Below, one piece after another: positions 39,801 to 56,562 of a DNA stretch of 64,000 nt. The position numbers and the translations under genes are program-made. How positions within the stretch are numbered: the first letter of the stretch is position 1; the number at the start of each line of letters is the position of its first letter. The notes under the pieces are model-generated. The model made no database searches, was not told the DNA's origin, and saw only the letters and a list, made by a program, of their open reading frames with translations. Source of the stretch: an uncultured Planctomycetota bacterium (GTDB lineage Bacteria > Planctomycetota > PLA2 > JAEUHO01); contig CAVVXN010000004.1 in assembly GCA_963752285.1 (NCBI GenBank), forward strand, positions 160,001-224,000, given 5' to 3'.

Positions 39801-41489
39801 TCAGGGTGGACCGCGCGCCGCCGAGTCGGCGAGCGGTTGGTTCGTGAGCACCGCGTAGCCCGCGCCCGTCGCCACGACCCACGTGGGAAGGTCGCCGAAG
39901 TACGTCTCGGGGTCGTGGGTGCGGACGAGCAGGAACCGGCGCTCCGGCGCGAAGAACCACGCACGGACGGCCTCCTTGGGGAGGAAGAGGTCGGGGCGGG
40001 ATCGCTCGGGCGGGACCACCATCGCGTCCGACGGGAACCCGAAGTAGCGCACGTGCTCCCTCGCGAACCAGGGGAGGAGGCCCCAGTCCCCGGAATACGG
40101 CAGCTCCGCGCCGAGCTCGTCGCCCGGCGTGCGGTGGCGTTCGATCGCCTGCCAGAGCGGCTTTCCCGCGCGGACGAGGAGCGGCTCCTGCGCGAGGAGC
40201 GCGCCGGCCGCGAGGAGCATCGCCGCCGTCGCGAGGGCCGCGCGGCCGATGGTGCCACGTCGCGCGCGGCGGGGGGTGGGTGCGAGCGCGGCGACGAGCG
40301 CCCCGCCGGCCGCGACCGCGCCGACGGCGAGCGTCGCGGCGTCCGTGTGGCGCGCGACCATCGCGATGACGACACCGAGGCACGCGACCGACACGCCGAT
40401 CGTGGCGAGCGCGAGCTGGCGTCCCCAGGCCGCGTCGTCCTCCGCCGCGCCCGTCGCGCCGCGCGCGGGAAGCCCGAGCGCCACGAGGAGGGCGACCCAC
40501 GGGAAGGCGGGCGACGCGTACGACACGAGCCGGCTTCTCGAGAAGGTGAAGAGAACGGGCGCCGCGAGGGCCAGCGCCGCCGCCACGACGCCGGGGCCGC
40601 GAAGCCACCGCCCCTCGCGCCGGAGCCGGCCGATCGACGGCACGAGCGCGGCGAGCCAGGGGAAGGTGCCGAGGAGCGGGATCCAGACCACCCAGACGGG
40701 TCTCGCGTGGAAGTCGGCGCTCGAGGCGAGGCCGCCGAAGAGGCGGCGGCGAACGAGCGCGTCGAGCAGCCCCGGGATCCGCGCGTCGGCCGCGAGGTAC
40801 CACGGGACGGAGACCGCGAGGAGCAGCAGGAGGCCCGCCGGGTTCACGAACGGCCGGAGGATCCGCGCGTCGCGGCGGACCGCGGCTACCACGAGGGCCG
40901 CGCCGAGGACGAGCGCGAGCGCGAGCGGCCCCTTCGCGAGCATGCCGAGGCCCAGCGCGCCGTGCAGGAGGAGGACGGGGCCCCACCCGGCCCGCCCGCC
41001 CGCGCGGTCGGCCTCGAGGAGCGCGAGGCCCGCGAGCGTCGTCGAGAGCACGAGCCACACGTCCGTCGAGATCGTCGTGGCCTGCGCCACGAACGAGGGC
41101 ATGGTCGCGAGCGCGAGGGCCGCGACCAGGCCGCGTCGCGTCGCGGCGGCGTGGCCTTCCACCGCGGGAGAGAGCCGTCGCGCCCCGATCGCGATCGCGA
41201 GGACCGTGAGGACGCCGGCGAGGAGCGAGGGGACGCGCGCCGCGGCGTCGCCGACGCCGAGCACCAGGAAGGTGAGCGCGAGGGCCCAGGGCGCGAGCGG
41301 CGGCTTCTCGACGTGGGGCGCGCCGTCGAGCGTCGGGACGACGAGATCGCCCGAGGCGTACATCTCGCGGCCCATCTCGGCGTAGCGGGTCTCGGTGCTC
41401 GTGGCGGGCCCGAGGAGAGCGCCGAGGGCCAGCGCGCCGCCGAGGAGCACGGGGGCGAGCCCGATCAGCAGCAGTCCCGGTCGCGCCAC
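39801..41489 (-). CDS. ArnT-like glycosyltransferase (GT39/83, PMT_2)
   Basis: ETRYAEMGREM, EKPPL, ARVPS, LAKGP, PWY motifs; multiple TM segments. Confidence 0.88.
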   Translation of the reverse strand: MARPGLLLIGLAPVLLGGALALGALLGPATSTETRYAEMGREMYASGDLVVPTLDGAPHVEKPPLAPWALALTFLVLGVGDAAARVPSLLAGVLTVLAIAIGARRLSPAVEGHAAATRRGLVAALALATMPSFVAQATTISTDVWLVLSTTLAGLALLEADRAGGRAGWGPVLLLHGALGLGMLAKGPLALALVLGAALVVAAVRRDARILRPFVNPAGLLLLLAVSVPWYLAADARIPGLLDALVRRRLFGGLASSADFHARPVWVVWIPLLGTFPWLAALVPSIGRLRREGRWLRGPGVVAAALALAAPVLFTFSRSRLVSYASPAFPWVALLVALGLPARGATGAAEDDAAWGRQLALATIGVSVACLGVVIAMVARHTDAATLAVGAVAAGGALVAALAPTPRRARRGTIGRAALATAAMLLAAGALLAQEPLLVRAGKPLWQAIERHRTPGDELGAELPYSGDWGLLPWFAREHVRYFGFPSDAMVVPPERSRPDLFLPKEAVRAWFFAPERRFLLVRTHDPETYFGDLPTWVVATGAGYAVLTNQPLADSAARGPP

Positions 41490-41640
41490 GTTGCGGAATA
41501 CTACGCGATCGGGCCCACGGCGAGGGCCCCGGCCTCCGACCGGCCCCGTGCCGGAGGTCCGGCGAGGCACCGCGTCGGCTTCGGTGCTCTCGCCCTCGGG
41601 CTGGACGAGCCTCCGCCCCGGCGCCTAGGATTCGCCGCCC

Positions 41641-43749
41641 ATGCCGCCTTGGTCGCCCCCGGTCCTCGCGACGCTCGCGCTGGTCCTCACGGGCCTCGTC
41701 GGGTCCCCCGCGGCGCGCGCCGGCGACACCGAGGTCCTCGAAGACCCGGGGTACCGCCTTGAGCTGATCCGGCCCGCGCCGGACTGGGACCTCCTCGACG
41801 AGAGGGACGCCGTGAGCCTCGTCTCGAGTGCGCGCCTCGGCGCGACCGGTCCGGGCGCGAGCCTCTGCGTCGTGACGACGCAGCCGTGGCTCGGAGGGGA
41901 CCTCGCGACGTGGGCGCGCGCCCTCTTCGCCCAGACGCCTCTCCCGGGCGCCGAGATCGCGGACGTCGGGTCGCTCGACTACCAGGGCGTTCCCGCCGCT
42001 CGCCGGCATGCACGCTGGACGTCGAACGGCGCCGAGATGGACCAGGAGACCACCCTCTTCGTGCGCGGCGACGTGCTCTTCCAGGTCCTCTGTCAGGCGC
42101 CGCGCGCGACGGTTGCCCCGATGCGCCTGCCGGGTCTCGCCAGCGCGTCCTACTACCCCCGCGATCAGGTCGAGTCGTACTTCCGCGTCTTCCACGCGGC
42201 GCTCACGCTCCTGCCCGGGGACGTGGTGTCGCGCCCGCCGCTCGCGCCGGAGCGCGCGGACCGACGCGGGGTCGGGTGGCGGATCCGGGACGGACGCTAC
42301 GAGAACGCGGCCTACGCGTTCGCCGTCACGCCTCCCGCGGGGTGGGCCTTCGTGGACGAGAGGGAGCGTGCGGCGCTCCCGATCCCCGCGGAGCTCGCGC
42401 TCGTGCACGTCGCGACGGGCGCCCTCGTCGTCGTGGTGACGGAGCGCCCCGTTGGGTTCGACGCCCCGGCGTACGACGCGTCGGTTCGCTCCCGCTTCGA
42501 GAACCGGCTCGAGGAGCACGCCCAGGGCGAGCCCCTCCACGCGACGTTCCTCGGCGCGCCCCTCGCGCTGGCGCGCCTCCCCGGGCGCGGTCCGGCGCCC
42601 GTGGAGATCGCCGTGGGGACGCGCGTCTCGCCGAAGACGTGCTACTGGGTCGTGACGTTCCTTCCGGAGCGGAACCGCGCCGACGGGGCGCGCGCCGTGT
42701 CGGACGCGATCGCTGCGTTCCAGTCGCTCTCCGCCGAGGCGGCGGCCGCGCTCGCCCGCGAGCTCGCCGCCCTCCCCGATCCGCAGGAGGCCGTCGGTCC
42801 GACGACGTCGCTGCGGGCCGGCGTCTGGCGGAACCACGCGCTCGGCGTGGTGTGGAAGAAGCCGTCGCCGGCGTGGCGCGTGTCGATCGATCCCACGGCG
42901 GGCCCGGGGGGGCACTTCGAGGACCTCGCGAGCGGCATGCAGATCGTGTTCGGCGTACAGGACGTCGTGGTCCCGGCGTGGGCCGCTGGTCCGACCGGGT
43001 CGGACGACGACGCCTGGTACCACCAGCAGGCGCTCCAGGGGCTCGACGCGACCCCGGTCCACTACCACGCCCGCGCCAAGGCGACCGAGCTCGCGGGTCT
43101 CCCCGCGCTGGGCTCCATCGCGGACGCGCCCGTCGCCGGCGCCGACGGCCCCCGCCTCCTCGAGGTCGTCGTGACCGCGAAGCACGACGACCACCACCTC
43201 GTCTTCCGAGCCGAGGCCCCGCTGCTCGAGGTGGAACAGGTCCAGACCAACGGTCAGGCCGCCCTCGACGGCTTCGAGCTCCCGGCCGACGGCTGCCCCG
43301 CCGAACGAGGCGACGCGCACCACGTCGAGGACCTCCGCCTGGGCTTCTCCTTCTCGGTCCCACCCGACGGATGGGTGCTCCGCCAGGAGACGCCGGGCTT
43401 CCTCCGGGCGAACGGCACGATGCTCCAGGCGCTCGGTCCCGCGCAGACCGTCGTCGTCGCGGCCGTCGCGGACACGATCAGCGAGCGCCTCGCGCGGCGA
43501 TCGATCGTGCGGGCGATCACCGGTCTGCTCGACGCCACGTTCCAGGGCATCGGCGAGAGCGCCGTCGAGGAGGCGACGCTCGCGGGCCTCGTTGCCGAGC
43601 GACACACGTGGCGCGTGGGAGCGCGGCGATTCGACCTCTTGCTCGCGACGCGCGGCGCCACGCTCTATGCCGTGGGCGTGTTCTCCCGACCGGAGGGCGG
43701 GGGACTCGGACTCGACGACCTCGCGAAGCGCTTCGCGCTGCTGCCCTGA
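41641..43749 (+). CDS. Exported protein with four internally repeated PsbP/DcrB-like domains
   Basis: Signal peptide (ARA-GD); recurring motif in DPGYRLELIRPAPDW, NAAYAFAVTPPAGW, NHALGVVWKKPSPAW, DLRLGFSFSVPPDGW. Confidence 0.6.
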   Translation: MPPWSPPVLATLALVLTGLVGSPAARAGDTEVLEDPGYRLELIRPAPDWDLLDERDAVSLVSSARLGATGPGASLCVVTTQPWLGGDLATWARALFAQTPLPGAEIADVGSLDYQGVPAARRHARWTSNGAEMDQETTLFVRGDVLFQVLCQAPRATVAPMRLPGLASASYYPRDQVESYFRVFHAALTLLPGDVVSRPPLAPERADRRGVGWRIRDGRYENAAYAFAVTPPAGWAFVDERERAALPIPAELALVHVATGALVVVVTERPVGFDAPAYDASVRSRFENRLEEHAQGEPLHATFLGAPLALARLPGRGPAPVEIAVGTRVSPKTCYWVVTFLPERNRADGARAVSDAIAAFQSLSAEAAAALARELAALPDPQEAVGPTTSLRAGVWRNHALGVVWKKPSPAWRVSIDPTAGPGGHFEDLASGMQIVFGVQDVVVPAWAAGPTGSDDDAWYHQQALQGLDATPVHYHARAKATELAGLPALGSIADAPVAGADGPRLLEVVVTAKHDDHHLVFRAEAPLLEVEQVQTNGQAALDGFELPADGCPAERGDAHHVEDLRLGFSFSVPPDGWVLRQETPGFLRANGTMLQALGPAQTVVVAAVADTISERLARRSIVRAITGLLDATFQGIGESAVEEATLAGLVAERHTWRVGARRFDLLLATRGATLYAVGVFSRPEGGGLGLDDLAKRFALLP

Positions 43750-46700
43750 TGGAACCGACCCCCGCCCCGACCGAACGGTACGTCGCGTTCCTGAGCTACC
43801 GGCACGTCGATCCCGACCGACGCTGGGCCGCGTGGCTGCTCCGGAAGATCGAGACGTATCGCATCCCCCGCCGCCTCGCGCGGGACCTCGACGTCCCGCG
43901 ACGCCTCGGCAAGGTGTTCCGCGACGAGGAGGAGTTGGCGGCCACGTCCGATCTCTCCGGGACGATCCGCGAGGCGCTCGAGGGCTCGCGCTACCTGATC
44001 GTCGTGTGCTCTCCCCGAACGCCCGCGTCGAAGTGGGTCGATCGCGAGATCCAGGCGTTCCGAGACCTCGGGCGCTCCGGCCGGATCCTCGCCTGGCTCG
44101 GCGAGGGCGCATCGGACCAGAGCTTCCCGCCGTCGCTCCACGCGATGGGGCCGCGGCTCTCGGACGAGCCCGCGGCCGGCGAGGTGGCGCCGCGGGGCTT
44201 CGAGCCCCTCGCGGCCGACGCGCGCCCCGTCGCGGGCCGGGCCCACGCCCGGGTCCTCCGTACGGCCCTCCTCCGTGTGCTCGCGCGGCTCATCGGCTGC
44301 TCGTACGACGACCTCCGTCAGCGCGACCAGGCGCGGAGGCAGCGGTTCTGGATGGCGGCGACCGCGGCGGCGTCGGTGCTCGTGCTCGCGTTCGCGGTCC
44401 TCGCCGCATACGCGCTCCACAGCCGCAACCTCGCACGCGTCGAACGGGACCACGCCCGGGCCTCCGGCCTGCTCGAGGCGTCGCAGCTCGCGCTCGCGTC
44501 CGATCCCCAGCGCGGACTGATCCTGGCCCGCCACGCCGCGGACCTCGAAGTCACGAAGGAGGTGCGGAGCCAGCTCCACGCGGCCCTCGAGGCGCCGGAC
44601 AAGCGTTGGGCCCGCCCCAATCCCGAGGGCGACTACGTGGGCGTGGCGATCTCGCCCCTCGGCGACCGTGTGCTCGTGGAGTCACGGGGCCGTCGGATCC
44701 GGGTCTTCGACGCGGACGGCGAGGTCCGCGCGACCCTGGAGGGCGGGACGGAGTGGACGGTCGGCCCGGTGTACGCGCCCGACGGCGCCTTCGCGCTGGT
44801 GGACGGGCCGCGCGGGTCCCTGCTCATGTTGGGTCGGGACGGGGCGGTCCTCCACCGGGCCGAGGCGCCGGAGGGCGAGCGATACGACGATTGGCGGATC
44901 CTGCCGGGCACGAACGCGGTCTGGGCCTGCCACGGTCGAACGCTCGTTCGCTTCGCGGCCGATCTGACCGTCGCCGAGGAGCTCAGGGCGAGCGGGACGG
45001 TCCGCGACTACCTCGTGCTCCCCGACGGATCCGGGGTGTGCGCGGCGGTCGATGAGGTGGGCCTCGTCCGCCTCGACGGGTCGGGATCGAAAGTCATCCA
45101 CACCGGCGAGGTCGGCGTGGGAACGCAGCTCCTCTGGGAGCAGCCGGGCCGCGTGCTCCTTTGGCTCTCCTCCTTCGACGCCACGAAGCGGTTGGACCTC
45201 GAGAACCCGGACGCCTCGGAGGACCTCCCCGCGACGCACGTGGCGACGGACCCCCGTCTCGGACTCCTGGCGACGGTGTCGGCCGGAGGGCTCCGGATCC
45301 GCGACCGGGACGGTCGCGTCGTGGGGGAGGCGCGGGGCCGTCGGATCGGCAAGCTCCTCCCGGACGTGACGGGCGGCGCGTTCGTCTACCTCCTGTCCGA
45401 CGGAACGATCTCGGTCCTCGACGCGACGGGTCACGGCGTGACCTACACGGGCGCCGCGGGCGCGGACCCCGTCGTGGTGGCGAGCGCGCTCGCCGGCACG
45501 CGCCTCGTGGTCGGCACGCGACGGGACGGCGTCTGGCTGGTGGACCTCTCGCACGCGGACCTCGGTTCCTTCGGCCTGCCGGGTGCCGGCGGAGGCCCCT
45601 CGCCGTGGAGCGGCGACGGTCGCACCTTCGTGGCTGCCGAGGGCTCCTTCGTGCTCCTCTGCGACCGAGACGGCACGTTGCAGCAGAGCTTCTCGACGGC
45701 GTCCGTGCGCGTGCGGTCGGTCGCCCTCGCTCCGCACGGCGACACGGTCGCCGCGGGACTCGAAGACGGAACGGCGCGGGTGTGGAAGACGGACGGGTCG
45801 CCGGCCGCCGAGCTCCGGGGCCACGAGGGCCCCGTCACGAAGATCGCGTTCTCGCCCGACGGACGCCGCGTACTGACGGGAGGCGTGGACGGGACGGCTC
45901 GCCTCTACGACCTGGACGGTCGGGTGCTCGCCGCGCTGCGAGGATTCACGAGCCCTCTCCGGTACGCCCGGTTCTCCGACGACGGCTCGGAGGTCCTCAC
46001 GTGGGACGGTGGCGCAGGCGTTCGCCTCTGGGACGCCGACGGAAAGCCCAAGCGTCTCCTCGATCTCGGCGGCGAACCCGTGCTTGCGGCGGGATTCCTC
46101 CACGGGACCGACCGCATCGGGCTCGCGGGGCAGCGTCGCGTGCGCGTGTTCGAGCCGGACGGTCACTTGGCCGGCACGATCGAAGACCCGTACCAGCGGA
46201 TCCGCGGCGCGGTGTTCGCGTCGGACGGCCGCATGCTGGTCGTCGGCAGTCCCCTGCGCGTGCTCGCTTCGGACAGTCACGAGCTCTCGTCGCTCGAGAA
46301 ACACGTGGAGGGCGCGCGGATCGAGCCGAACGGCGACCGGATCCTCACCTGGAGCGGAGGAAAGATCGCCGACCTCGAGGCGCCGTCGGGCACCGTCCCC
46401 CTCGGTGATCACCTGGCGAGCATCACCGCGGGGTGCTTCGGTCTCCTCGACGGCGCGTTCGCCACCGCGACGGAAGACGGATCCGTGCACGTGTGGCGGC
46501 GCGACGGTGCGAACCTGGCCGTCCTTCCGCCGTCGGGCGCCGCCGTGCGGGCGCTCTGGCCGTCGAGGGACGGGACGCGGCTCCTCGTCCTCGACGACAC
46601 CGGGCGCATGCGCCTCACCGTCATCGACACCCCGGGGCTCGAGGCGTTGGCGGCGCGTCGTGTCTACCGGGAGCTGACGTGGCGGGAACGTGTGGCGTAC

Positions 46701-47219
46701 AAGGACCTGCTCGGAGATCCGGGGCCGGAACCGGACCCCGGCCTGGCGAAGCTCGACGAGCTCGTCGCGACGCTCGAGAGGTCCGGGGGCGCCGAGACGC
46801 CGGAGTCCCTGCGCCTGGAAGGCGAGCTGGACGACCGCATGCACGAGCTGGTGCCCGGAGCTCGCGAGGGCGAGCAGCTCCCTGAGCTCCTGGCCCTCGT
46901 CGCCCGGACGCATCCCGACGACGCGAAGCGGATCGAGAATGCCATCCAGCACCAGGTCCTCGCCGAGGAGACCAAGCGGAAGCTCGAGGCGCTCCGGTCC
47001 AAGCTCGAGGACTTCCATCGCGAGAAGGGGCGCTACCCGACGAAGGACGAGGACGTGCTGGTCCTCGACCCGGGGGGAACGACGCCCACGGACCCGACCT
47101 CGAGCCCGATCGTGGACGCGTGGGGGTCGGTCTTCCTCTACGTCCCGACGAAGGACGGCTACGCGCTCACGTCGGCGGGTCCCGACGGCGTCCACGGGAC
47201 GCCCGACGACCTCCACTGA
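43749..47219 (+). CDS. TIR - TM - WD40 beta-propeller - GspG-like domain fusion protein
   Basis: AFLSYRH, VFRDEEEL, SRYLIVVCSP, WVDREI (TIR); TM at about 44345-44420; GHEGPV..FSPDG..TGGVDGTARLYD WD40 repeats; C-terminal GRYP..DAWG..SAGPDG..GTPDD. Confidence 0.88.
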   Translation: MEPTPAPTERYVAFLSYRHVDPDRRWAAWLLRKIETYRIPRRLARDLDVPRRLGKVFRDEEELAATSDLSGTIREALEGSRYLIVVCSPRTPASKWVDREIQAFRDLGRSGRILAWLGEGASDQSFPPSLHAMGPRLSDEPAAGEVAPRGFEPLAADARPVAGRAHARVLRTALLRVLARLIGCSYDDLRQRDQARRQRFWMAATAAASVLVLAFAVLAAYALHSRNLARVERDHARASGLLEASQLALASDPQRGLILARHAADLEVTKEVRSQLHAALEAPDKRWARPNPEGDYVGVAISPLGDRVLVESRGRRIRVFDADGEVRATLEGGTEWTVGPVYAPDGAFALVDGPRGSLLMLGRDGAVLHRAEAPEGERYDDWRILPGTNAVWACHGRTLVRFAADLTVAEELRASGTVRDYLVLPDGSGVCAAVDEVGLVRLDGSGSKVIHTGEVGVGTQLLWEQPGRVLLWLSSFDATKRLDLENPDASEDLPATHVATDPRLGLLATVSAGGLRIRDRDGRVVGEARGRRIGKLLPDVTGGAFVYLLSDGTISVLDATGHGVTYTGAAGADPVVVASALAGTRLVVGTRRDGVWLVDLSHADLGSFGLPGAGGGPSPWSGDGRTFVAAEGSFVLLCDRDGTLQQSFSTASVRVRSVALAPHGDTVAAGLEDGTARVWKTDGSPAAELRGHEGPVTKIAFSPDGRRVLTGGVDGTARLYDLDGRVLAALRGFTSPLRYARFSDDGSEVLTWDGGAGVRLWDADGKPKRLLDLGGEPVLAAGFLHGTDRIGLAGQRRVRVFEPDGHLAGTIEDPYQRIRGAVFASDGRMLVVGSPLRVLASDSHELSSLEKHVEGARIEPNGDRILTWSGGKIADLEAPSGTVPLGDHLASITAGCFGLLDGAFATATEDGSVHVWRRDGANLAVLPPSGAAVRALWPSRDGTRLLVLDDTGRMRLTVIDTPGLEALAARRVYRELTWRERVAYKDLLGDPGPEPDPGLAKLDELVATLERSGGAETPESLRLEGELDDRMHELVPGAREGEQLPELLALVARTHPDDAKRIENAIQHQVLAEETKRKLEALRSKLEDFHREKGRYPTKDEDVLVLDPGGTTPTDPTSSPIVDAWGSVFLYVPTKDGYALTSAGPDGVHGTPDDLH

Positions 47220-47229
47220 CCCCCGAACC

Positions 47230-47319
47230 GACATACGGAGCCAGAGCAATTCTGCCCCCCCCACACCGGCCCTACGGGGGGACATACGGAGCCAGGGGAC
47301 GTAGGGGACATACGGAGCC
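47230..47319. repeat. Three copies of GACATACGGAGCC with a nested CCCTACG/CGTAGGG inverted repeat
   Basis: Copies at 47230, 47281 and 47307; inverted arms at 47270-47276 and 47300-47306. Confidence 0.85.
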
Positions 47320-47395
47320 GGAGCCGTACCGCGCCGGGTCGCCGCCCGACCGCGCGGCGATCCGGGCGCGGGACCTCGTCGGGTACCCTCTCCGC

Positions 47396-49078
47396 GTGCG
47401 ATACGCCGAGTGGCTCGTCGTCCCGCTGTTCGTGGTCCCGGTCCTCGCGCTCGCGGGCCTCGGCGCGTGGGCCCACGAGCGCCACGCGGCCGATCTGGGC
47501 CTCCTCGCGCGCGAGGGCGAGGCGCGCGCCCGGCAGTGGCTCGACGAGGGTCCCGCCGCGTGGATGGCGGAGCGCGCGGTCCGCGAGCTCTCGCCCTCGG
47601 CGGGGCCGGCTGCAGGCGACGTCCCGTTCGGGCAGGCCGACCGCCGCGGCGTCGTGCGCCTCGGCGCGCCGAGCGCGGGCCCCGAGACCTGGGCGATCGC
47701 GCCGTCGTTCCCCGTCGGCCTCTCCCCCGACGCGCTCGCGGATCCGGGCGTGCGCCTCCGCGTGGAGGTCGGGGGCGCGCCCGTCGCGGTGGACGGCGTG
47801 GACGCGGCGACGGTCGCGCTCCGAGACCTCCTCGAGCACCCGGATCTCGCGCGTCTTCGCGGCGCCCCGCTGCCGGCCGGCACGAAGCGCTACGTGCTCA
47901 CGCGCTGGCGCGCCGGTGACGGCGACGACGAGGCCCTCCGCGCCGCGGCGCGGCTCCTCGACGTCCTCGCGTCGCTCGAACGCGGCGATCCCGCGCTCGG
48001 CCTCGGCCGACCGCCCGGCGCGTACGAGGTCGGCGGCGTGCTCGTATTCTCGTCGGGCGCCGCCGCGCCGCTCCTCGTGTTCGGGCCCGACGTGGCGCCG
48101 CCCCGGACCGTCCTCTCGGAGCCCGGGGCGGAGACGGACCCCGGCCGGCTCGTGTGGACGGTCTCGCCCGCCACACCCGTCCAGGGCGAGGTGCTGTGGC
48201 AAGGGCGGCTGGACCAGCCGCTCGCCGGCACCTGGCGGTGGGTCGCGAAGGCGCGCGCGTGGTACGCCGACCCGCGCGTCGCTCGTTGGACCGCGCCCGC
48301 CGCGATCCTCCTGGTACTGGGCCTCCTCCTCCCGACCCTCCTCCTCGTCTCGCTCCGCCGCCGGCGGCGCGCCGAGGAGGCGCGCGTGCGATTCCTCGAC
48401 GGGATCGCCCACGACCTGCGAACGCCGCTGGCGGCGCTCCGGCTCCACGCGGACCTCCTCCAGCGCGGCACGGACGACCCGGAGAAGCGCGACCGCTACG
48501 CCGCCACCGTGGCGCGCGAGGCCGCCCGCCTCTCGGGCCTCGTATCGAGCCTCCTCGACCTCTCGCGGCTCGCGCCCGGCGGGGGCGACGGACCGCGCGG
48601 GGCCCCGCCGGCGCCGCGCGTCGCGCTCGGCGCCGCGGTCGAGGGATCGCTTCGCGACTTCGCGCTCGCCTGGCCCGACCGGGCCGACGACGTCCGTCGG
48701 ATCGGCGAGCGCGAGGTCCACGCGCGGGCCGACGGGGAAGGACTTCGCCGCTGCCTCGCGAACCTCCTCGACAACGCGGCGAAGTTCACGCCGAAGGGCA
48801 CGCCGATCCACGTCGGGTGGGGGACGGAGGACGGCCGCGCGTTCCTTCGCGTGGAGGACGAGGGGCCGGGCATCCCGCCCGACGAGGCGCGGCGCGTCTT
48901 CGAGCCGCGCGCGCGCGGGGCGCGCGCCTGCGCGGAGGGCGTGCCCGGCACGGGCCTCGGCCTCGCGCTCGTCCGGGACCTCGCACGGCGGATGGGGGGC
49001 GACGTGGAGCTCGAGCCCTCCGCGCGGGGTGCGCGCTTCACGATCCGGCTCGCGGAGGCCCACGATGACGGCGCATAG
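47396..49078 (+). CDS. Membrane sensor histidine kinase
   Basis: Two TM segments; IAHDLRTPL, NLLDNAAKF, DEGPG, GTGLGL. Confidence 0.92.
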   Translation: MRYAEWLVVPLFVVPVLALAGLGAWAHERHAADLGLLAREGEARARQWLDEGPAAWMAERAVRELSPSAGPAAGDVPFGQADRRGVVRLGAPSAGPETWAIAPSFPVGLSPDALADPGVRLRVEVGGAPVAVDGVDAATVALRDLLEHPDLARLRGAPLPAGTKRYVLTRWRAGDGDDEALRAAARLLDVLASLERGDPALGLGRPPGAYEVGGVLVFSSGAAAPLLVFGPDVAPPRTVLSEPGAETDPGRLVWTVSPATPVQGEVLWQGRLDQPLAGTWRWVAKARAWYADPRVARWTAPAAILLVLGLLLPTLLLVSLRRRRRAEEARVRFLDGIAHDLRTPLAALRLHADLLQRGTDDPEKRDRYAATVAREAARLSGLVSSLLDLSRLAPGGGDGPRGAPPAPRVALGAAVEGSLRDFALAWPDRADDVRRIGEREVHARADGEGLRRCLANLLDNAAKFTPKGTPIHVGWGTEDGRAFLRVEDEGPGIPPDEARRVFEPRARGARACAEGVPGTGLGLALVRDLARRMGGDVELEPSARGARFTIRLAEAHDDGA

Positions 49079-49760
49079 GATCCTCGTGGTCGAGGACGAG
49101 GCCTCGATCCGGACGGGCCTCGGGGACGCGCTCGAGTCGGAGGGTTACGACGTGCTCCTCGCCGAGGACGGGGAGCAGGGTCTCGCGCTGGGTCTTCGCG
49201 AGGACCCCGACCTCGTGCTCCTCGACGTCGTGCTCCCGGGCCTCGACGGCTTCGAGGTGCTGCGCCGGCTCCGCGCCGACGGCGTCGTGACGCCCGTCTT
49301 GATGCTCACGGCGCGCGCGCAGGAGCACGACCGCGTCCGGGGCCTCGACCTCGGCGCCGACGACTACGTGACGAAGCCCTTCGGCCTGCCCGAGCTGCTC
49401 GCGCGCGTGCGCTCGCGCCTCCGCGCGTGGGACCGCGAGCGCGGCGAGGACGAGGGCGCGCGGCTCCGCTTCGCCGGCGTGGTGGTGGACCTCGCGGCGC
49501 GCACCGCGACGAAGGACGGCGAGGACCTGGGCTTGACGCCGAAGGAGATCGACCTGCTTCAGGCGCTCGCGCGGCGCGAGGGCCACGCGGTCTCGCGGGA
49601 CGACCTCCTCCACGAGGTGTGGCGGGACGAGGAGGTGACGCCGCGCGTCGTGGACACGGCGGTTCTCGGCCTCCGGAAGAAGGTCGAGCCCGAGCCGACG
49701 CGGCCGCGGCACGTGCTGTCGGTCCGGGGCACGGGCTACCGCTTCGTGCGGCGGTCCTGA
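49065..49760 (+). CDS. OmpR/PhoB-family response regulator
   Basis: ILVVEDE, LLDVVLP, GADDYVTKPF, LTPKE, RVVD..LRKK, VRGTGYRF winged helix. Confidence 0.95.
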   Translation: MTAHRILVVEDEASIRTGLGDALESEGYDVLLAEDGEQGLALGLREDPDLVLLDVVLPGLDGFEVLRRLRADGVVTPVLMLTARAQEHDRVRGLDLGADDYVTKPFGLPELLARVRSRLRAWDRERGEDEGARLRFAGVVVDLAARTATKDGEDLGLTPKEIDLLQALARREGHAVSRDDLLHEVWRDEEVTPRVVDTAVLGLRKKVEPEPTRPRHVLSVRGTGYRFVRRS

Positions 49761-52566: not shown

Positions 52567-53433
52567 TCACTTCGACGCGCGAGGAGGACGGGGCGCGGCG
52601 GCGCCCGGCTCCGCCTGCGCGGTGAGCAGCGCGCGGATCTCGCGGACCTCGCCGCGAAGCGCGCGGACCTCGTCGTGGAGCACCTGGAGCTCGGCGAGGA
52701 CCGGGTCCCCCTGCGATCCTCCCGCGACGAAGGGCGTGTCGGTCGCCCGGTCCCGGCCGGTCGCGCCGCCCAGCGCGCGGAGCGCCCGTTCGTACTCCTC
52801 CTTCCGCTTCGCCTCGGCGACCGCTCGCTGCTTCGCCTCGGCCAGCTCGTCTTGCGCCTTCTCCGCGGCCGCTATCAGCTCCTGCACGCGTCGCTGCATG
52901 TCGGCGAGCTGCTGACGCGCCGCCTCGGCCTGCGCCTGGAGGTCTTGTGCCTTCGCCGCGCGCTGCTGCAGCTCGTTCTGGTGCAGCTGGTTCTGGCGAA
53001 GAAGCCACTCCTGGCCCTTGGTGATGGCAGCCTCCGCGTGCGCTCGGACGACCGCGGGGTCGGAGCCAGTCTCGCCCTTCGCCCCCAGGACGAGCTTCCC
53101 GTCCTCGCCGACCACACCCTCCATGCCGGGCGTCGCTAGCGTCTCACGCCGCATCTCGGCGAGCATCGCCCGGAAGCGGTCTTGCTCTGCGGAGGTGCCG
53201 GTGACGACGAGCGCTCCGTCGCCCCAGATGACCTTCAGGCCCTGGATACTCGCGTCGCGTATGCGATGCGCGAGCTCGTCGACAGAAAGTCCGAGGTCGC
53301 GAACGTCGTAGATCTGCTGGACGCGCGGATCGACCGGCGGTTCGTCGGCGCGCGCGGTCCAGGCCGTCGCGGCGAGGGGCGCCGCGAGGGCGACGAGGAG
53401 CAGCAGGGTTCGGGTGGCCTTCCACATGGTCAT
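52567..53433 (-). CDS. Secreted coiled-coil protein, third gene of the BlaI/BlaR1 operon
   Basis: Signal peptide (ARA-DE), QQIYDVRDL motif, long Q/A/E-rich helix; overlaps the blaR1-like stop. Confidence 0.75.
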   Translation of the reverse strand: MTMWKATRTLLLLVALAAPLAATAWTARADEPPVDPRVQQIYDVRDLGLSVDELAHRIRDASIQGLKVIWGDGALVVTGTSAEQDRFRAMLAEMRRETLATPGMEGVVGEDGKLVLGAKGETGSDPAVVRAHAEAAITKGQEWLLRQNQLHQNELQQRAAKAQDLQAQAEAARQQLADMQRRVQELIAAAEKAQDELAEAKQRAVAEAKRKEEYERALRALGGATGRDRATDTPFVAGGSQGDPVLAELQVLHDEVRALRGEVREIRALLTAQAEPGAAAPRPPRASK

Positions 53434-54707
53434 CTCCCGTCCGCGCCGAGCGCGCGGTGGACTCGGATCGTGCGTTCCTCGATCGACCGGACCCGCGCCT
53501 CGATCCGTCGGGCGAGGTCCGGGTGTCCCTGTGCTTCGAGCGCCCGCGTCACGTCTTCCGCCTCGACGCCGAGCGATCGGAGGTCCTGCTCCAGGCTCTC
53601 GAGCGCCGCCGCGCGCGGGTCGCCCGCGGCCGACGCGGACCCCGGGGGCACGAGCTCCGGCGGCGCCGCCGGGCGCGCCGGCGCGAGGAGCGGCACCACC
53701 AGCAGCGGCAGGAGCGCGAGCCCGCGGCCGCCCGACGCCTCGCGGACGGGGCCCGCGAGGAGGGTTTGCACGCGCACGCCGAGCGACGCGCGCCGGGCGG
53801 CCATCGCGGGCACCGTCGCGGGGACGCGCCGGTCGCCGATCCAGCCCGCGACCGTCGTGAGGCAGCGCGCGAGCGCGACGCGTCGGTGCTCCGCGCGCGC
53901 CGCCCAGGCGTCCGCGCGCCGTTCCGCGAGGTCCGCGAGGCGCCGCCTCGCGAGGTGGTTCAGCGGCTGGAAGAAGAGGAGCCCCGTGGCCGCCGCGTAC
54001 GCGCGCGCCCAGAGCGGGTCGCGTCGCGCGAGGTGCGCGACCTCGTGGGCGAGCATCGCCTCCAGCGCGGCGGGATCGAGCTCCCGGAGCGCGCGCTCCG
54101 GCAGCACGATCTCCAGACGGCGCACGCCGAGGGCCACCGGGCTCGCGATCGCCGGCGAGGTGGAGACCGCGACCGGCCGGCGCAGGCCCGCCTCCCGACG
54201 AAGCGAGGCGACGAGGTCGTGGACCGCGCGCTGCACGTTCGGGACGCGCCGGGCGAAGGACCGCGCGAGACGACGTCGCACCGCGTGGTCGCGGAAGAGG
54301 AGCGCGAGGGCGCCGAGCGGCCAGAGGAGGAGCAGGAGGCTCGGATCCGGGCCCGACTCCGGGGCGGAGGGCGACGTCGCCGGCGCGGGCGCGTCCGAGA
54401 CGGTCGTTACGGAGACGTCCGGGCGCACCGGCGTCTCGACGAGGGTCTCCGGTACAGGCTCGAGCGGGGCGCGCGAGGCGAGCGGCTCCGGAGGCGCCGT
54501 CGGGAAGAGCGCGATGGGCGAGCCGAAGACCATCGCGAGCGTAGCGGTGAGCGCGCCGCCGAGGAGCCCGATGCGCCACGCGCGCTCGGACGCCGCGGGG
54601 CCGAGGCGCCCCGTGCGCGTGAGGAGGAGCGTGGCGCCGAGGAGCACCGTCGAGTGGGCGCCGTACGTCGCGAGCCAGCGGAGGAGGATGGGGACGCCCG
54701 GTGTCAT
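53430..54707 (-). CDS. M56 family (BlaR1/MecR1-like) membrane metallopeptidase
   Basis: SPVALG..IVLP, LAHEVAHLARRD, FFQPL, ERRADAWA. Confidence 0.9.
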   Translation of the reverse strand: MTPGVPILLRWLATYGAHSTVLLGATLLLTRTGRLGPAASERAWRIGLLGGALTATLAMVFGSPIALFPTAPPEPLASRAPLEPVPETLVETPVRPDVSVTTVSDAPAPATSPSAPESGPDPSLLLLLWPLGALALLFRDHAVRRRLARSFARRVPNVQRAVHDLVASLRREAGLRRPVAVSTSPAIASPVALGVRRLEIVLPERALRELDPAALEAMLAHEVAHLARRDPLWARAYAAATGLLFFQPLNHLARRRLADLAERRADAWAARAEHRRVALARCLTTVAGWIGDRRVPATVPAMAARRASLGVRVQTLLAGPVREASGGRGLALLPLLVVPLLAPARPAAPPELVPPGSASAAGDPRAAALESLEQDLRSLGVEAEDVTRALEAQGHPDLARRIEARVRSIEERTIRVHRALGADGR

Positions 54708-55102
54708 CCCCGCGACTCCTCGCCCTTCTCGAGGAGACGGCGGAGGCGGCGGAGCTCTTCCTCGTCCACCTGCTGCTCGGTCAGGAGGTGGGAGAGGAGC
54801 AGCGCGGGATCGCCCTCGAAGAGCCGGCGGAGGAGCGCGCCGACCATGGAGCGGCGTACCTCCTCGCGCGGGAGCGCGGCACGGTAGAGGAACGTCCGTC
54901 CGTCCGCCTCGTGCTGGACGACGCCGCGCCGTTCGAGCCGCTGGAGCGTCGTCGCGACGGTCGTGACGGCGCGCCGCTTCGCGGCCGGGAGCGCGGCGAC
55001 GACGTCGGCGACGGAGGCGAGGCCCTGCTCCCAGAGCACGTCCATCACGGCGAGCTGGAGGTCGGAGAGCTCGACGGGGGCGCGGCGCTTCGAACGACTC
55101 AT
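54704..55102 (-). CDS. BlaI/MecI/CopY family repressor
   Basis: LSDLQLAVMDVLW, TTVATTLQRLERRG, GRTFLY, LFEGD..LLSHL. Confidence 0.93.
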   Translation of the reverse strand: MSRSKRRAPVELSDLQLAVMDVLWEQGLASVADVVAALPAAKRRAVTTVATTLQRLERRGVVQHEADGRTFLYRAALPREEVRRSMVGALLRRLFEGDPALLLSHLLTEQQVDEEELRRLRRLLEKGEESRG

Positions 55103-55179: not shown

Positions 55180-56562
55180 TCAGCGGGACCCGGTGCGCGC
55201 CGCGTCGAGCGCGGCGCGGAGCTCGCGCTCCGTCTGCTCGCCCATCAGGCGCCGGCGCCCGATGTCGAGCGTCGGGAGGCCGCGCAGCTTCGCCGAACGG
55301 GCGAGGTCGCGGTCGCGCACGAGCCACGCGGGCGGGTTCGGGTCCGCGAGAGCCGCCTTCAGCCCGCTCGGGTCGAGGCCGGCGCGCCCCGCGGCGGCGT
55401 ACACCTCGGCCGGCGTCTCCCGGGTCGCGCGCATGAGCTCGCGGAAGAGGACCTCCTCCTTCCCCACGCTTCGCGCGTACGCGAGGACCCGCGTCCAGAG
55501 GGGGAAGTCGGCAGTCGCCCACGTGTAGATGCGACGGCGGCGTACCGGGTATCCGACACGCGGCGCGACCTTCTCCAACCGCTGGTACGTGGCGCGACAG
55601 TGGGGGCAGAAGGCGTTCAGGTACTCGACGATCCAGACGGGCTTCTCGGTCGGCGGGGGGGCGGGCGCGCGCGACGGCGCGGGCGACTCCGCCGCGACCA
55701 CCGGAGGCGCCGGCGACGGAGCGGCCGGCGCGGGGGACGGATCCTGCGACCCGACCTCGCCGACCGTCTCCCCGGACCCCGTCGATCGGTCGAGGGGCCG
55801 CGACCAGGCCCGGACCGCGCCGTCCGGGTCCCAGGCCTCCGCGGTGCCGATCCCCGGCCACGCCGCGAGCACGGGCGGCTCCGCGTCCCTTGCGTCGTCG
55901 CGCGCGTCCGTCGTTCGGGTCGGACGCCGCGCGGTGGACTCGGGCCGAGCGGTCGGCGTCGCCGTCGCGGCCGGCGTGCCGTCCCCGATCACCTCGCCGG
56001 CTCCGAGGTCCGCGGCCGAGAGCGGCGTGATCTCGACCCACCCCCGGTCGCTCGGACGCGGCCAGAGGAAGGGCGCGGCGGCGACCACGCCGACCGCGGC
56101 GCTCCACGCGATCCGCGAGCGCCGGCCCTCGCCGGGGAGGCGGAGTCCGGAGAGGCGCACGGGGGGCTCGGGCCAGGTCAGGGTGATCGCGCCGGCCACG
56201 AAGCCCATCGAGTCGGCCACGAGGCAGAACGGGCAGAACGTGTGGAGCACGAGCGCCTGGTACGCGACGAATCCCGCGCCGGCGGTCGCCGCGACCGCGC
56301 CCGCCGGGCGCAGCACGGGACGCGCCCACTCGACGGGCAGGAGGCTCACCGTGAACAGGCCGCCGAACGCGACCATCCCCACGACGGAGGTCGGGACGCC
56401 CGCGAGCGTGCCAAGCGGGCTCTCCCGGGCGGCGGCGCACGCCTCGGCGAGCGGGCAGAACTCCCGGTCGGGGTGCAGGTGATCGGAGGTCAGCACGGCG
56501 CTCGCGAGGAGCGCCGCGAGCGCTGCGAGGCGCAACGCCGCCGTGCGTCGAACGTAGGCCAT
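55180..56562 (-). CDS. VKOR - thioredoxin/DsbA-like fusion
   Basis: FCPLAEAC loop cysteines, FCPFC active site, long P/A/T/S linker, CPHC and GLPT thioredoxin domain. Confidence 0.88.
   Translation of the reverse strand: MAYVRRTAALRLAALAALLASAVLTSDHLHPDREFCPLAEACAAARESPLGTLAGVPTSVVGMVAFGGLFTVSLLPVEWARPVLRPAGAVAATAGAGFVAYQALVLHTFCPFCLVADSMGFVAGAITLTWPEPPVRLSGLRLPGEGRRSRIAWSAAVGVVAAAPFLWPRPSDRGWVEITPLSAADLGAGEVIGDGTPAATATPTARPESTARRPTRTTDARDDARDAEPPVLAAWPGIGTAEAWDPDGAVRAWSRPLDRSTGSGETVGEVGSQDPSPAPAAPSPAPPVVAAESPAPSRAPAPPPTEKPVWIVEYLNAFCPHCRATYQRLEKVAPRVGYPVRRRRIYTWATADFPLWTRVLAYARSVGKEEVLFRELMRATRETPAEVYAAAGRAGLDPSGLKAALADPNPPAWLVRDRDLARSAKLRGLPTLDIGRRRLMGEQTERELRAALDAARTGSR

Follow-up and report, generated by a model that had tools for sequence, protein, structure and literature searches.

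A single open reading frame in the genome of an uncultured Planctomycetota bacterium joins an N-terminal TIR domain to a hydrophobic helix, WD40 repeats and a C-terminal domain resembling the pseudopilin GspG, which raises the question of what such a protein might sense and by what route its TIR domain would pass the message on. We analyzed this gene, P0001, within the whole stretch of 64,000 nucleotides that contains it (the window, on contig C4), together with its neighbors and its relatives in other genomes. Our preferred reading, to which we assign somewhat less than even odds (about 0.45), is that P0001 spans the membrane and serves as the sensor of a Thoeris-like TIR pathway working outside-in. 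If true, P0001 and the product of the adjacent gene, P0111, would provide a way of turning cell-envelope events into a TIR-made alarm signal.

Architecture and membrane topology of P0001

The P0001 frame translates into 1156 aa without a stop, and its third-position GC content is 0.84-0.96 across positions 43800-47100 (Table 1). The host bacterium is high-GC. Pfam placed TIR_2 at aa 14-113 (36.3 bits, cut-off 28) and T2SSG at aa 1072-1153 (28.2 bits, cut-off 21; profile positions 11-100 of 108), and also matched ThsB_TIR (31.1 bits, cut-off 21.2) and WD40 (78.5 bits, cut-off 27); thus the three families for which the original prediction had suggested a scan, TIR_2, WD40 and T2SSG, all exceeded their cut-offs. 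No NTPase family was present in the precomputed Pfam matches or among the matches listed (25 of 37 families), in agreement with the claim that P0001 lacks the STAND NTPase of the TIR-STAND-repeat (NLR-like) proteins; nor did the precomputed matches or those listed include an LRR. The plan of P0001 is common to five distinct orthologues with pairwise identities of 36-75%, namely those of G000 (the genome of this window, whose only TIR_2 match is P0001), G016 (protein P0112) and G041, and the proteins P0002 and P0115. The fusion of TIR domain to GspG core is therefore carried by a single intact gene and is not an assembly chimera. A literature search found no published description of this architecture, as had been suspected, and the P0001-type single-pass membrane TIR protein is rare.

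Table 1. Coordinates of the two adjacent genes and their parts within the window.
Feature	Position	Strand	Details or basis
P0111, secreted protein	41641-43749	+	702 aa; signal peptide aa 1-27 (cleavage between ...AARA and GD); four tandem domains of predicted PsbP/Mog1/DcrB fold
P0111 repeat D1	41728-42255	+	
P0111 repeat D2	42256-42804	+	
P0111 repeat D3	42805-43320	+	
P0111 repeat D4	43321-43746	+	
P0001, TIR - helix - propeller - GspG-like gene	43749-47219	+	1156 aa; intact ORF
TIR module (predicted cytoplasmic), aa 11-199	43779-44345	+	Pfam core aa 14-113
Glu100 codon, catalytic-type Glu of S-x-W-x-x-x-E motif	44046-44048	+	within WVDREI
Single transmembrane helix (predicted), aa 200-223	44346-44417	+	hydrophobicity, aligned position in family
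Juxtamembrane helical stretch (aa 224-285), then diverged propeller-like beta-rich region (aa 286-640)	44418-45668	+	
WD40 beta-propeller, aa 641-960, about 7-8 blades	45669-46628	+	Pfam, blade HMM, self-repeat
Helical linker, aa 961-1070	46629-46958	+	aligned C-termini of three orthologues
GspG-core domain, aa 1071-1156 plus stop codon	46959-47219	+	Pfam, AlphaFold model, Foldseek

The TIR module is the most conserved part of P0001 (mean identity 68%, four orthologues), and its conserved EPLAADARP and LLRVLARLIGCSYDDLRQR stretches extend to the membrane helix; the TIR_2 match reaches 39.0 and 39.9 bits in orthologues. HMMER aligned Glu100, which had been singled out as the putative catalytic residue, with the catalytic Glu residues of AtTIR (3jrn, in WCLDEL) and TcpB (4c7m, in WPAREL), and Glu100 is invariant in 19/19 aligned family N-termini. 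The TIR domain of P0001 is predicted to be of the enzyme type.

Exactly one hydrophobic segment, at aa 202-220, was found in P0001 (Kyte-Doolittle mean of 2.28 over 19 residues), matching the one transmembrane helix of the original prediction, and no N-terminal signal peptide was found in the protein. The helix keeps its position across 19 aligned family members, with a Kyte-Doolittle mean of at least 1.6 in 17 of them. Lys and Arg in the 15 residues before and after the helix sum to 131 versus 60 over 19 family sequences, while the flanks of P0001 alone (5 versus 4) are ambiguous. A receptor-like, single-pass topology, with the TIR domain inside and the propellers and pilin-fold tail in the periplasm as a sensor, is thus supported at the level of prediction by the one helix and the family charge bias, as well as by the kinds of ectodomain in the family and the helix-plus-WD40 plan of receptor kinases (see below). 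The alternative is a simple TIR-WD40 conflict protein with all its repeats in the cytoplasm, either because the segment does not truly cross the membrane or because the orientation is reversed; we regard this as very improbable. A cytoplasmic location is usual for WD40 repeats, and the topology of P0001 is a prediction with a weak charge bias of its own, which would suit such a protein, but the hydrophobicity of the segment, its kept position and the charge bias of the family argue against it, and the GspG-core domain and the co-encoded signal-peptide protein point to the periplasm.

The proposal of roughly two propellers' worth of WD40 repeats stood for one propeller and in weaker form for the other. 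Residues 641-960 form a clear propeller, with blade-HMM matches at aa 653-684, 683-745 (64.4 bits), 724-772, 800-834, 855-870, 882-927 and 939-956 and, upon self-alignment, a repeat offset of about 41 aa (probability 98.7%). The region at aa 286-640 has a moderate likeness to it (hhalign probability 75%, E 2.6e-5, over 260-286 columns) and a single weak blade-HMM match at aa 299-336. Together with the juxtamembrane stretch it constitutes the least conserved part of the protein (aa 224-640; mean orthologue identity 35%). In the linker that follows the WD40 propeller, the motifs TWxERVAY and LLGDPGP are conserved among three orthologue C-termini, and the modeled part (aa 1030-1070) is helical.

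The pseudopilin-like tail

The tail comprises an alpha1-C helix and a beta-sheet with a SAGPDGxxGTxDD loop (D1146, D1153 and D1154), and is the second most conserved part of P0001 (55% identity). Its AlphaFold model (pLDDT 83.5) was compared with the PDB by Foldseek; the best ten matches were all major pseudopilins, headed by 3g20_A (E 7.1e-4, TM 0.54/0.59), so that the structure prediction proposed earlier returned a pilin fold. VIA-align gave a Z of 8.5 for the tail against 3g20_A (rmsd 3.9, 94 residues aligned) and of 7.9-7.1 against PulG, EpsG and XcpT, with unrelated rows at 2.4 or below. By HMM and fold alike, the tail contains the globular T2SSG domain. Neither a leader peptide nor an N-methylation motif nor a hydrophobic alpha1-N helix was found in it; because P0001 has no hydrophobic segment besides that at aa 202-220, the tail has no prepilin helix, and the description of a GspG signature without this helix proved accurate. 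The true GspG of this genome carries FTLVELMVV.... The corresponding loop of PulG and GspG holds calcium. Among the pseudopilin matches of the tail is PDB entry 5o2y, the title of which names a calcium-bound form.

We considered the further proposal that the tail is an integrated decoy for a pseudopilin- or pilin-targeting agent, or serves to dock the receptor on T2SS or pilus machinery that it would guard. The tail is truly GspG-like in fold and motif, this genome has a canonical T2SS operon (secretin, GspE, GspF, GspG and a minor pseudopilin), canonical-size GspG matches are present in G016 and G041, and conservation is higher in the tail than in the propellers, as would suit binding to a conserved partner in the host. 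However, the T2SS operon is unlinked, lying on contig C5, and the scanned genes of the window gave no secretion-system match. The tail would be unable to enter the pseudopilus filament because it has no alpha1-N helix, and it scored 21.5 bits against the NCBIfam GspG equivalog TIGR01710, for which the cut-off is 88.85. After its own two orthologues, the proteins nearest to it are not pseudopilins but secreted proteins in which 2-4 modules stand in tandem. Within this genome, three further exported proteins of non-immune appearance contain the same pilin-less GspG-like module, which also occurs in relatives without the TIR gene and in hundreds of tandem-module secreted proteins elsewhere, and exported proteins with this module also carry Kelch, PD40 or DUF3352-like parts. 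Since GspG-like modules recur in the exported proteins of the lineage, the tail appears to be a generic periplasmic module, which argues against a decoy and leaves that proposal, in either form, distinctly unlikely. The pseudopilus is periplasmic and is not known to serve as a phage receptor. The tail is likely a lineage-wide periplasmic module stabilized by calcium, and its role is probably one of docking or self-association rather than that of a decoy or a subunit of the pseudopilus.

The secreted partner, the wider family and candidate signal readers

The stop codon of P0111 (TGA, 43747-43749) overlaps the ATG of P0001 by one base, and the two proteins are probably made together. P0111 had no Pfam, NCBIfam or PADLOC match. 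Comparison of its repeats by hhalign gave probabilities of 95.6% (D1-D2), 96.2% (D2-D3) and 91.8% (D1-D3), and of 32-62% for D4. An AF2 model of D2, built from 28 domain sequences (pLDDT 89.1), had 28 Foldseek matches in the PDB at E ≤1e-3; among the matches listed these were PsbP, Mog1, LpqN/MTC28/Apa or uncharacterized proteins (3lyd, BT_1490), with DcrB, SciW/Eag and Tsi3 at weaker E. The model thus suggests a PsbP/Mog1/DcrB fold for the repeated domain, and protein-atlas leads for P0111 were DUF1795, PsbP and DcrB; seven P0111-family members had no match to the Pfam families of this fold at E ≤5. In G016 and G041 the gene immediately upstream of the TIR orthologue encodes a P0111 homologue (25-32% identical), and a P0111-type gene has this position in 3/3 genomes with DNA context. 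We propose that P0111 acts in the periplasm as a co-receptor or regulator. The family occurs in 7/40 genomes of the order, and P0111 may also have a function of its own, because four of these seven showed no TIR gene in the surrounding DNA fetched.

Proteins with the TIR-plus-helix module form a wider family in which the outer domains vary and include PD40, YD/RHS-like and FGE-sulfatase (precomputed Pfam), types that usually lie outside the cytoplasm. A relative in G012 combines TIR, kinase, helix and FGE-sulfatase. The pairing of a constant TIR-plus-helix module with many different ectodomains, and the 68% identity of the TIR module versus 35% for the outer N-terminal region among orthologues, would be consistent with sensor-like evolution. 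The distribution is patchy: the module was found in 9/41 related genomes, the full-length orthologue in 2/41 (G000 and G016) and the linker-plus-tail region in 2/401 genomes of the phylum sample, and G001, a genome of the same genus that is 80% complete, yielded no P0001-type gene.

The locus does not lie in a defense island; its neighbors are envelope, glycosylation and two-component genes, and those flanking the P0111-P0001 pair include PMT_2, Peptidase_C25, FG-GAP, glycosyltransferases and mreBCD. PADLOC returned only noise (ThsB, 14.3 bits, E 0.0069). Such surroundings would suit a housekeeping protein of envelope signaling or assembly, in which the TIR domain would act as a scaffold or local NAD-linked regulator and P0111 and the tail would be structural periplasmic modules. 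That GspG-like modules and P0111-like proteins occur without TIR in the lineage is in keeping with this, as is the degree of tail conservation, which is that expected of a host-directed contact. We nonetheless regard a housekeeping role as unlikely in view of the patchy, accessory distribution (absence of a match in G001, full form in 2/401 genomes), the variation of ectodomains on a constant TIR module, the invariant catalytic-type Glu, and the conflict-type genes (CHAT-TPR, SLATT and TPR-S) found at related loci.

Under the preferred reading, a second protein would read the TIR-made signal. TIR with SLATT constitutes type VII Thoeris, which uses cADPR, and the 3'cADPR of type I Thoeris is read by a SLOG domain (bioRxiv 10.64898/2025.12.03.692087); SLATT was predicted to be a nucleotide-responsive pore (PMC7159879). 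The neighbors of P0001 in the window include no SLOG, SLATT, Macro, TPR-S or similar domain. This lack of an adjacent effector lowers the claim of a Thoeris operon, not that of a Thoeris-like working. A SLOG-like/SLATT gene is, however, convergent (tail-to-tail) with the TIR orthologue in G016 and G041; as these belong to the same genus, and are the only such cases for the exact P0001 architecture, they count as one evolutionary observation. Every SLOG and SLATT assignment lies below curated cut-offs: the convergent genes scored 29.3 and 29.7 bits for SLATT_1 (NCBIfam cut-off 41), with a DUF4231 match in addition, and the Pfam SLATT_1 score was 18.8 bits (cut-off 26.3). The encoded proteins have four hydrophobic segments; a protein-atlas lead pointed to YpsA (score 0.80, rank 29), and a profile search against the PDB gave no match. 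This family is present in 6/41 relatives, five of the six being among the nine with a TIR-plus-helix module, although these counts rest on related, incomplete genomes and are not independent. The genome of the window has one member, on contig C1 and unlinked to its one TIR gene; in each of the other five genomes with this family, the contig that carries the member also has a TIR_2 gene, at a distance of 15 bp to 3.1 kb. Each of these TIR proteins has a helix after its cytoplasmic part, and neighboring genes encode TPR-S, YAcAr-SLOG (22.4 bits, cut-off 28.2) or cyclase domains. The original prediction did not notice the secreted protein encoded upstream, the existence of a wider TIR-plus-helix family, or the link of such receptors to SLOG-like/SLATT and TPR-S readers.

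P0001 could instead be a self-contained abortive system, in which the same sensor clusters TIR domains that are themselves the effector, depleting NAD+ like SARM1 or TIR-STING, and no reader is needed. The conserved catalytic-type Glu would fit this, the window yielded no reader gene, and the scanned neighbors of the TIR-helix-WD40 genes in G020 and G026 contain no reader domain. Yet membrane TIR genes repeatedly adjoin SLOG-like/SLATT or TPR-S genes, in five related genomes and G041, and a single TIR gene is matched in this genome by a single candidate reader gene, so a reader-free system has in our judgment a low probability.

Proposed pathway and comparison with known systems

For the Thoeris-like pathway that we prefer, we infer the whole chain of events as follows. 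An envelope cue, which might be part of an invading phage, damage to the envelope or a ligand that P0111 holds, would alter the association state of the ectodomain and thereby draw the TIR domains together. The assembled TIR domains would cleave NAD+ to yield an ADP-ribose-derived signal, and the SLOG-like protein with two SLATT-type membrane hairpins would read this signal, leading to pore opening or growth arrest.

P0001 resembles Thoeris (ThsB, with the SLATT effector ThsH in type VII and SLOG effectors in types I and III) in its TIR domain with a catalytic-type Glu and in the SLOG-like/SLATT-like partner that adjoins its orthologues and other membrane TIR genes in relatives. Both would also share the logic of a TIR-made signal that is read by an effector. 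Unlike in Thoeris, a 1156-aa single-pass protein bears the TIR at its N-terminus, followed by a large sensor that is predicted to be periplasmic, and it has a secreted partner; the candidate effector is unlinked here and has sub-cut-off domain matches, and the locus lies outside any defense island.

With animal Toll and Toll-like receptors, P0001 would share a single pass through the membrane, a repeat-built ectodomain outside and a TIR inside, and for both, ectodomain-driven TIR clustering is the natural activation model. Those receptors have an LRR ectodomain and a C-terminal TIR, whereas the TIR of P0001 is N-terminal, giving the opposite (type II) orientation, and is of the enzyme type, and its ectodomain consists of WD40 blades and a pilin fold without LRRs. 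We see the resemblance as one of analogy; there is no evidence that the architecture as a whole descends from a common ancestor. The TIR-STAND(NTPase)-WD40/TPR (NLR-like) proteins have, like P0001, an N-terminal TIR and C-terminal repeats as presumed sensor; in P0001 a membrane helix takes the place of the NTPase switch, and its activation would therefore need clustering across the membrane.

The PsbP, Mog1, DcrB, LpqN and DUF1795 proteins, most of which are extracytoplasmic, share the predicted alpha-beta sandwich fold of P0111, which differs in having four tandem copies, no family HMM match and a position directly upstream of a TIR receptor gene, which it overlaps here. The tail has the alpha1-C helix plus beta-sheet fold and the DxWG...Y...S-x-G-P-D-G-x-x-G-T-x-D-D loop of the GspG/PulG/EpsG pseudopilins but, unlike these, forms the C-terminus of a receptor outside a gsp operon and falls far below the equivalog cut-off. 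Receptor Ser/Thr kinases (P0029, P0032, P0035 and P0063), which gave the strongest WD40 matches to the P0001 query, follow, as read by eye, the same plan of cytoplasmic output domain, one helix and WD40 repeats, with a kinase where P0001 has a TIR.

Architecture and conservation of P0001

The TIR gene of the window, P0001, reads as one real gene, since its 1156-codon open reading frame runs without interruption and its third-position GC stays at 0.84-0.96 over the full length (the window as a whole is ~74% GC). The coordinates and motifs of the original prediction were all confirmed, including the open reading frame and the position of the putative catalytic Glu100, which HMMER aligned to the Glu of WCLDEL in plant AtTIR (3jrn) and to that of WPAREL in Brucella TcpB. 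The protein had also been described as having one transmembrane helix and no STAND NTPase; it contains a single hydrophobic segment, and no NTPase family appears anywhere in its precomputed Pfam list. Two propellers had been proposed for the region that follows. The more C-terminal one is secure, as it is matched by the blade HMM and its self-alignment shows a repeat at ~41 aa with a probability of 98.7%, whereas the beta-rich region before it shows a moderate likeness to the WD40 region (probability 75%), and a second propeller is only plausible. A scan of window positions 41300-47600 for promoters and terminators returned zero sites. No RNA run was listed for the P0001 locus, and five DNA runs carry it in small shares (0.05-0.09).

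The fusion is not an assembly chimera, because five distinct proteins, with pairwise identities of 36-75%, are built alike from the TIR domain through to the tail: P0001, its orthologue in the related genome G016 (identical to database protein P0112), the G041 orthologue, which was added by a further sampling of the order, and the database proteins P0002 and P0115. This architecture is conserved to different degrees along its length, with mean identities among four orthologues of 68% for the TIR domain, 55% for the tail, 52% for the helix and juxtamembrane region, 41% for WD40, 40% for the linker, and 35% for the outer N-terminal region. Among 41 related genomes, the full-form gene was found only in G000, the genome that carries the window, and in G016; when 401 genomes sampled from the phylum were searched for linker plus tail, the same two were the only matches at E<=1e-12. 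G001, a genome of the same genus (80% complete), yielded no full-form gene; the genes that flank the locus are split over different contigs in it. A metagenome contig scan with the linker-plus-tail alignment returned zero relatives, and a genome contig scan with P0115 returned a single unrelated WD40 match. A look-up of clusters supplied no names.

Coordinates of features in P0001, in the surrounding window, and at related loci
Feature	Location	Remarks
P0111, secreted protein	window 41641-43749 (+)	702 aa
P0001, TIR gene	window 43749-47219 (+)	1156 aa
TIR_2 domain	P0001 aa 14-113	Pfam 36.3 bits, cut-off 28
Glu100	codon 44046	within S-K-W-V-D-R-E
Hydrophobic segment	P0001 aa 202-220	Kyte-Doolittle mean 2.28
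Beta-rich region	P0001 aa 286-640	
WD40 propeller	P0001 aa 641-960	
WD40 family match	P0001	Pfam 78.5 bits
Modelled tail region	P0001 aa 1030-1156	modelled with 47 relatives
T2SSG domain	P0001 aa 1072-1153	Pfam 28.2 bits, cut-off 21; profile positions 11-100 of 108
Direct repeat, 3 copies	window 47230-47321	starts 47230, 47281, 47307
OmpR-type regulator	window 49086-49760	
BlaI-type repressor (Penicillinase_R) with BlaR1/HtpX-like membrane protease gene, and adjoining VKOR-thioredoxin/DsbA fusion	window 53430-55102 (-) and 55180-56535 (-)	
L001	G000:C5:1184000-1193000	pilin-less GspG-like module(s)
L002	G000:C1:572000-579000	pilin-less GspG-like module(s)
L003	G000:C5:702000-709000	pilin-less GspG-like module(s)
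L013	G016, 7826-7840	P0111-like and TIR genes in one reading frame, single stop codon between
L016	G012:C190:3000-16000	TIR-helix-WD40 paralogue, 1216 aa
L026	G041, 13496-14626	patatin-like phospholipase gene
L040	G025:C105:14000-22207	compact TIR/candidate-reader locus
L041	G012:C512:9000-15407	compact TIR/candidate-reader locus
L042	G019:C468:1-6024	compact TIR/candidate-reader locus
L043	G022:C57:1-10000	compact TIR/candidate-reader locus

The GspG-like tail and the secreted partner P0111

Structure models were made for the P0001 tail and for domain 2 of the upstream protein P0111. The tail model (pLDDT 83.5) shows a long helix and, after it, a small beta-sheet, and its best ten Foldseek matches in the PDB are all major pseudopilins (GspG 3g20, PulG 5o2y, EpsG, XcpT), the top match having E 7.1e-4 and TM 0.54/0.59. 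VIA-align gave Z scores between 8.5 (rmsd 3.9, 94 residues) and 7.1 for major pseudopilins, 5.8-3.7 for type IV pilins, and at most 2.4 for unrelated rows. The tail family profile likewise matched eight GspG sequences of the PDB (E 6e-21 to 2.3e-16). The S-x-G-P-D-G-x-x-G-T-x-D-D loop is retained (D1146, D1153, D1154), and the NCBIfam GspG equivalog scores 21.5 bits on P0001, below its cut-off of 88.85. The tail lacks the prepilin helix that G000's own GspG possesses. A GspG-like domain without this helix, as predicted, is borne out by the T2SSG match, the pseudopilin fold and the location of the only hydrophobic segment elsewhere in the protein.

Five proteins of G000 match T2SSG: P0001, the true GspG, which is encoded on a different contig in a secretin-GspE-GspF-GspG-pseudopilin operon, and three large exported proteins with no pilin leader. 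A similar mix of carriers is found in G001, G016, and G041. In an all-against-all search, the nearest relatives of the tail after its orthologues are secreted proteins of 200-500 aa with 2-4 tandem modules, ranking above pseudopilins of canonical size; in other carriers the module is joined to Kelch or PD40 propellers. The original prediction regarded the tail as a decoy or docking part, and the retained fold and loop are compatible with such a use. The wide occurrence of the module in exported proteins of this lineage argues against a specific decoy, and we consider this idea improbable. We favour a general role in periplasmic docking or stabilisation, since the module is generic. The three exported proteins of G000 (L001-L003) comprise one of ~990 aa in which an N-terminal helix is combined with three modules in tandem, one of ~430 aa with a signal peptide and a module, and a DUF3352-like protein of ~730 aa with a module past its C-terminal hydrophobic stretch.

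P0111 carries a signal peptide, and its TGA overlaps the ATG of P0001 by one base. It has zero matches in Pfam, NCBIfam, and PADLOC, and a word-index homology search found only P0111 itself. A homologue with 25-32% identity is encoded directly upstream of the TIR orthologue in both G016 and G041. Seven of the 40 genomes examined from the order carry the family, and in four of these seven the surrounding DNA examined contained no TIR gene. Four domains of ~170 aa, homologous to one another, make up P0111; hhalign gave 92-96% among D1-D3 and lower values for D4. The model of domain 2 (pLDDT 89.1) gave 28 fold matches at E<=1e-3, the strong ones being PsbP, Mog1, LpqN/MTC28/Apa and two uncharacterised proteins; DcrB, SciW/Eag, and Tsi3 matched with weaker E, and the protein-atlas leads agree with these folds. 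The bacterial and plastid proteins among them are mostly extracytoplasmic, and several are protein or ligand binders. A domain profile run against PDB sequences matched only TAL repeats, which we judged spurious. In G016, the TIR start lies ~10 nt past the stop of the P0111-like gene, as judged from P0112.

A histidine kinase and a response regulator encoded downstream were considered as parts of the system and rejected, since neither is conserved beside the orthologues and they are preceded by a repeat-bearing region of their own. Three copies of the 15-nt direct repeat GACATACGGAGCC(A/G)G, spaced by 51 and 26 nt, occur in the 176 bp that separate the TIR gene from the histidine kinase gene. 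This stretch has a higher AT content than the DNA around it, and the OmpR-type regulator may bind to the copies.

The TIR-plus-helix family and its candidate signal readers

Beyond the orthologues, 16 further matches to P0001 (32-44% identity) are confined to its first 200-290 residues. The 19 aligned N-termini share a TIR module, an EP(L/I)A(A/G)D motif, an arginine-rich stretch, and an invariant catalytic-type Glu (19/19), with a hydrophobic helix at the equivalent position that passes the threshold in 17. The domains after the helix vary in the precomputed Pfam data between WD40, PD40, TPR, YD/RHS-like repeats, FGE-sulfatase and PQQ-like, and the module as such occurs in 9 of 41 related genomes. 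P0001 is a rare sub-form of this broader, putative receptor family of TIR-based signalling. Receptor Ser/Thr kinases among the WD40 matches follow the same helix-then-WD40 plan, as judged by eye. Across the family, the 15 residues before the helix contain 131 Lys and Arg versus 60 in the 15 residues after it, which supports a TIR domain inside and the remainder outside; the C-terminal 930 residues of P0001 are thus predicted, with good support, to be periplasmic. The count in P0001 alone is 5 versus 4, and in view of the family as a whole it is highly improbable that the predicted topology is wrong. The L016 paralogue stands between two genes, one for a ClpB-like double-AAA+ protein that has a PCRF domain and one, convergent, for a TPR-CHAT (caspase-like) protein, a setting that resembles a conflict system.

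The TIR orthologues of G016 and G041 each face a convergent gene (in G016, the two gene ends are 15-18 bp apart) whose product of 570-575 aa has four hydrophobic segments, SLATT_1 matches of 29.3 and 29.7 bits, below the cut-off of 41, and DUF4231 matches. Its N-terminal 200 residues contain the motifs TGHR, EGADQ, and WDGE..GRGGT, which we take to be SLOG-like, and the protein atlas places YpsA-SLOG at 0.80 (rank 29); the family profile gave nothing meaningful against the PDB. The family occurs in six of the 41 relatives, five of which also have the TIR-plus-helix module; because the genomes are related and incomplete, we attach no statistical claim to this co-occurrence. In all five genomes besides G000, a TIR_2 gene shares the contig with the SLOG-like/SLATT gene, at 44 bp in G012, 80 bp in G025, 159 bp (divergent) in G022, and ~3.1 kb within the same operon in G019, and convergently in G016. 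The TIR proteins beside these genes each have a helix past the cytoplasmic part and then an outer domain. G019 and G012 have FGE-sulfatase in this position, and G022 a propeller-like domain; the protein of G012 contains a kinase domain as well (TIR-kinase-helix-FGE-sulfatase). Genes nearby encode TPR-S, YAcAr-SLOG (22.4 bits, sub-cut-off) and cyclase domains.

In the compact loci L040-L043, the membrane TIR proteins are paired with candidate readers of two kinds, SLOG-like/SLATT proteins and TPR-S/SLOG-like proteins, of which the one in G019 has a cyclase domain. Taken together, these loci resemble a family of cassettes for outside-in TIR signalling. The second gene downstream of the G041 TIR orthologue, which follows the SLATT-like gene, encodes the patatin-like phospholipase of L026.

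Proposed outside-in signalling and known TIR systems

We give a probability of about one in three to the reading that this lineage has a true outside-in TIR pathway, in which interchangeable periplasmic sensors detect events at the envelope and a TIR-made nucleotide opens a SLOG-like/SLATT effector. Single-pass receptors with swappable sensors would detect such events before, or without, cytoplasmic entry. In P0001, the sensor would consist of two propellers and a calcium-loop pilin-fold domain, with the secreted four-domain PsbP-like P0111 as a putative co-receptor. We infer that clustering of the ectodomains activates the TIR domain, and the output would be a nucleotide that is read by, and opens, the SLOG-like/SLATT membrane protein.

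The only TIR_2 match of G000 is P0001, and its only SLOG-like/SLATT family member is encoded on contig C1 beside a kinase and sigma factors. This lack of linkage counts against the pathway, as do the sub-cut-off scores of every SLOG and SLATT assignment and the adjacency of a reader to the exact P0001 architecture in one genus. Direct NAD+ depletion by the TIR domain would require no reader; with candidate readers near TIR genes in the other five genomes, we regard it as rather unlikely. The P0001 locus also lies amid envelope and glycosylation genes, with no defence island, and PADLOC finds nothing there. These observations count against the pathway and would suit a non-immune envelope role, which also appears unlikely to us, the catalytic-type Glu being retained throughout the family. 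The proposed outside-in pathway is small, with two genes and one candidate effector, a size that makes it directly testable.

In the literature searched, including PMC7075850, PMC8195603 and PMC7159879, bacterial single-pass TIR receptors were not found described, nor were a TIR-WD40-GspG fusion or pilin-less T2SSG modules. Building blocks for which we found no printed account are the conserved TIR-plus-helix cassette with swappable ectodomains, the wide use of pilin-less GspG-core modules in exported proteins, and the secreted four-fold PsbP-like partner. To our knowledge, the TIR defence systems that have been characterised in bacteria detect infection from within the cell. Animals couple recognition outside to signalling inside by Toll-like receptors, and a TIR enzyme wired to a periplasmic sensor would mean that bacteria can couple envelope-level recognition to NAD-derived signalling. 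TIR plus SLATT constitutes type VII Thoeris with cADPR as the signal, the SLOG domain of type I Thoeris reads 3'cADPR (both bioRxiv 10.64898/2025.12.03.692087), and SLATT is a predicted nucleotide-responsive pore (PMC7159879). If true, the proposed pathway would give bacteria a functional equivalent of Toll-like receptor logic, combined with Thoeris chemistry.
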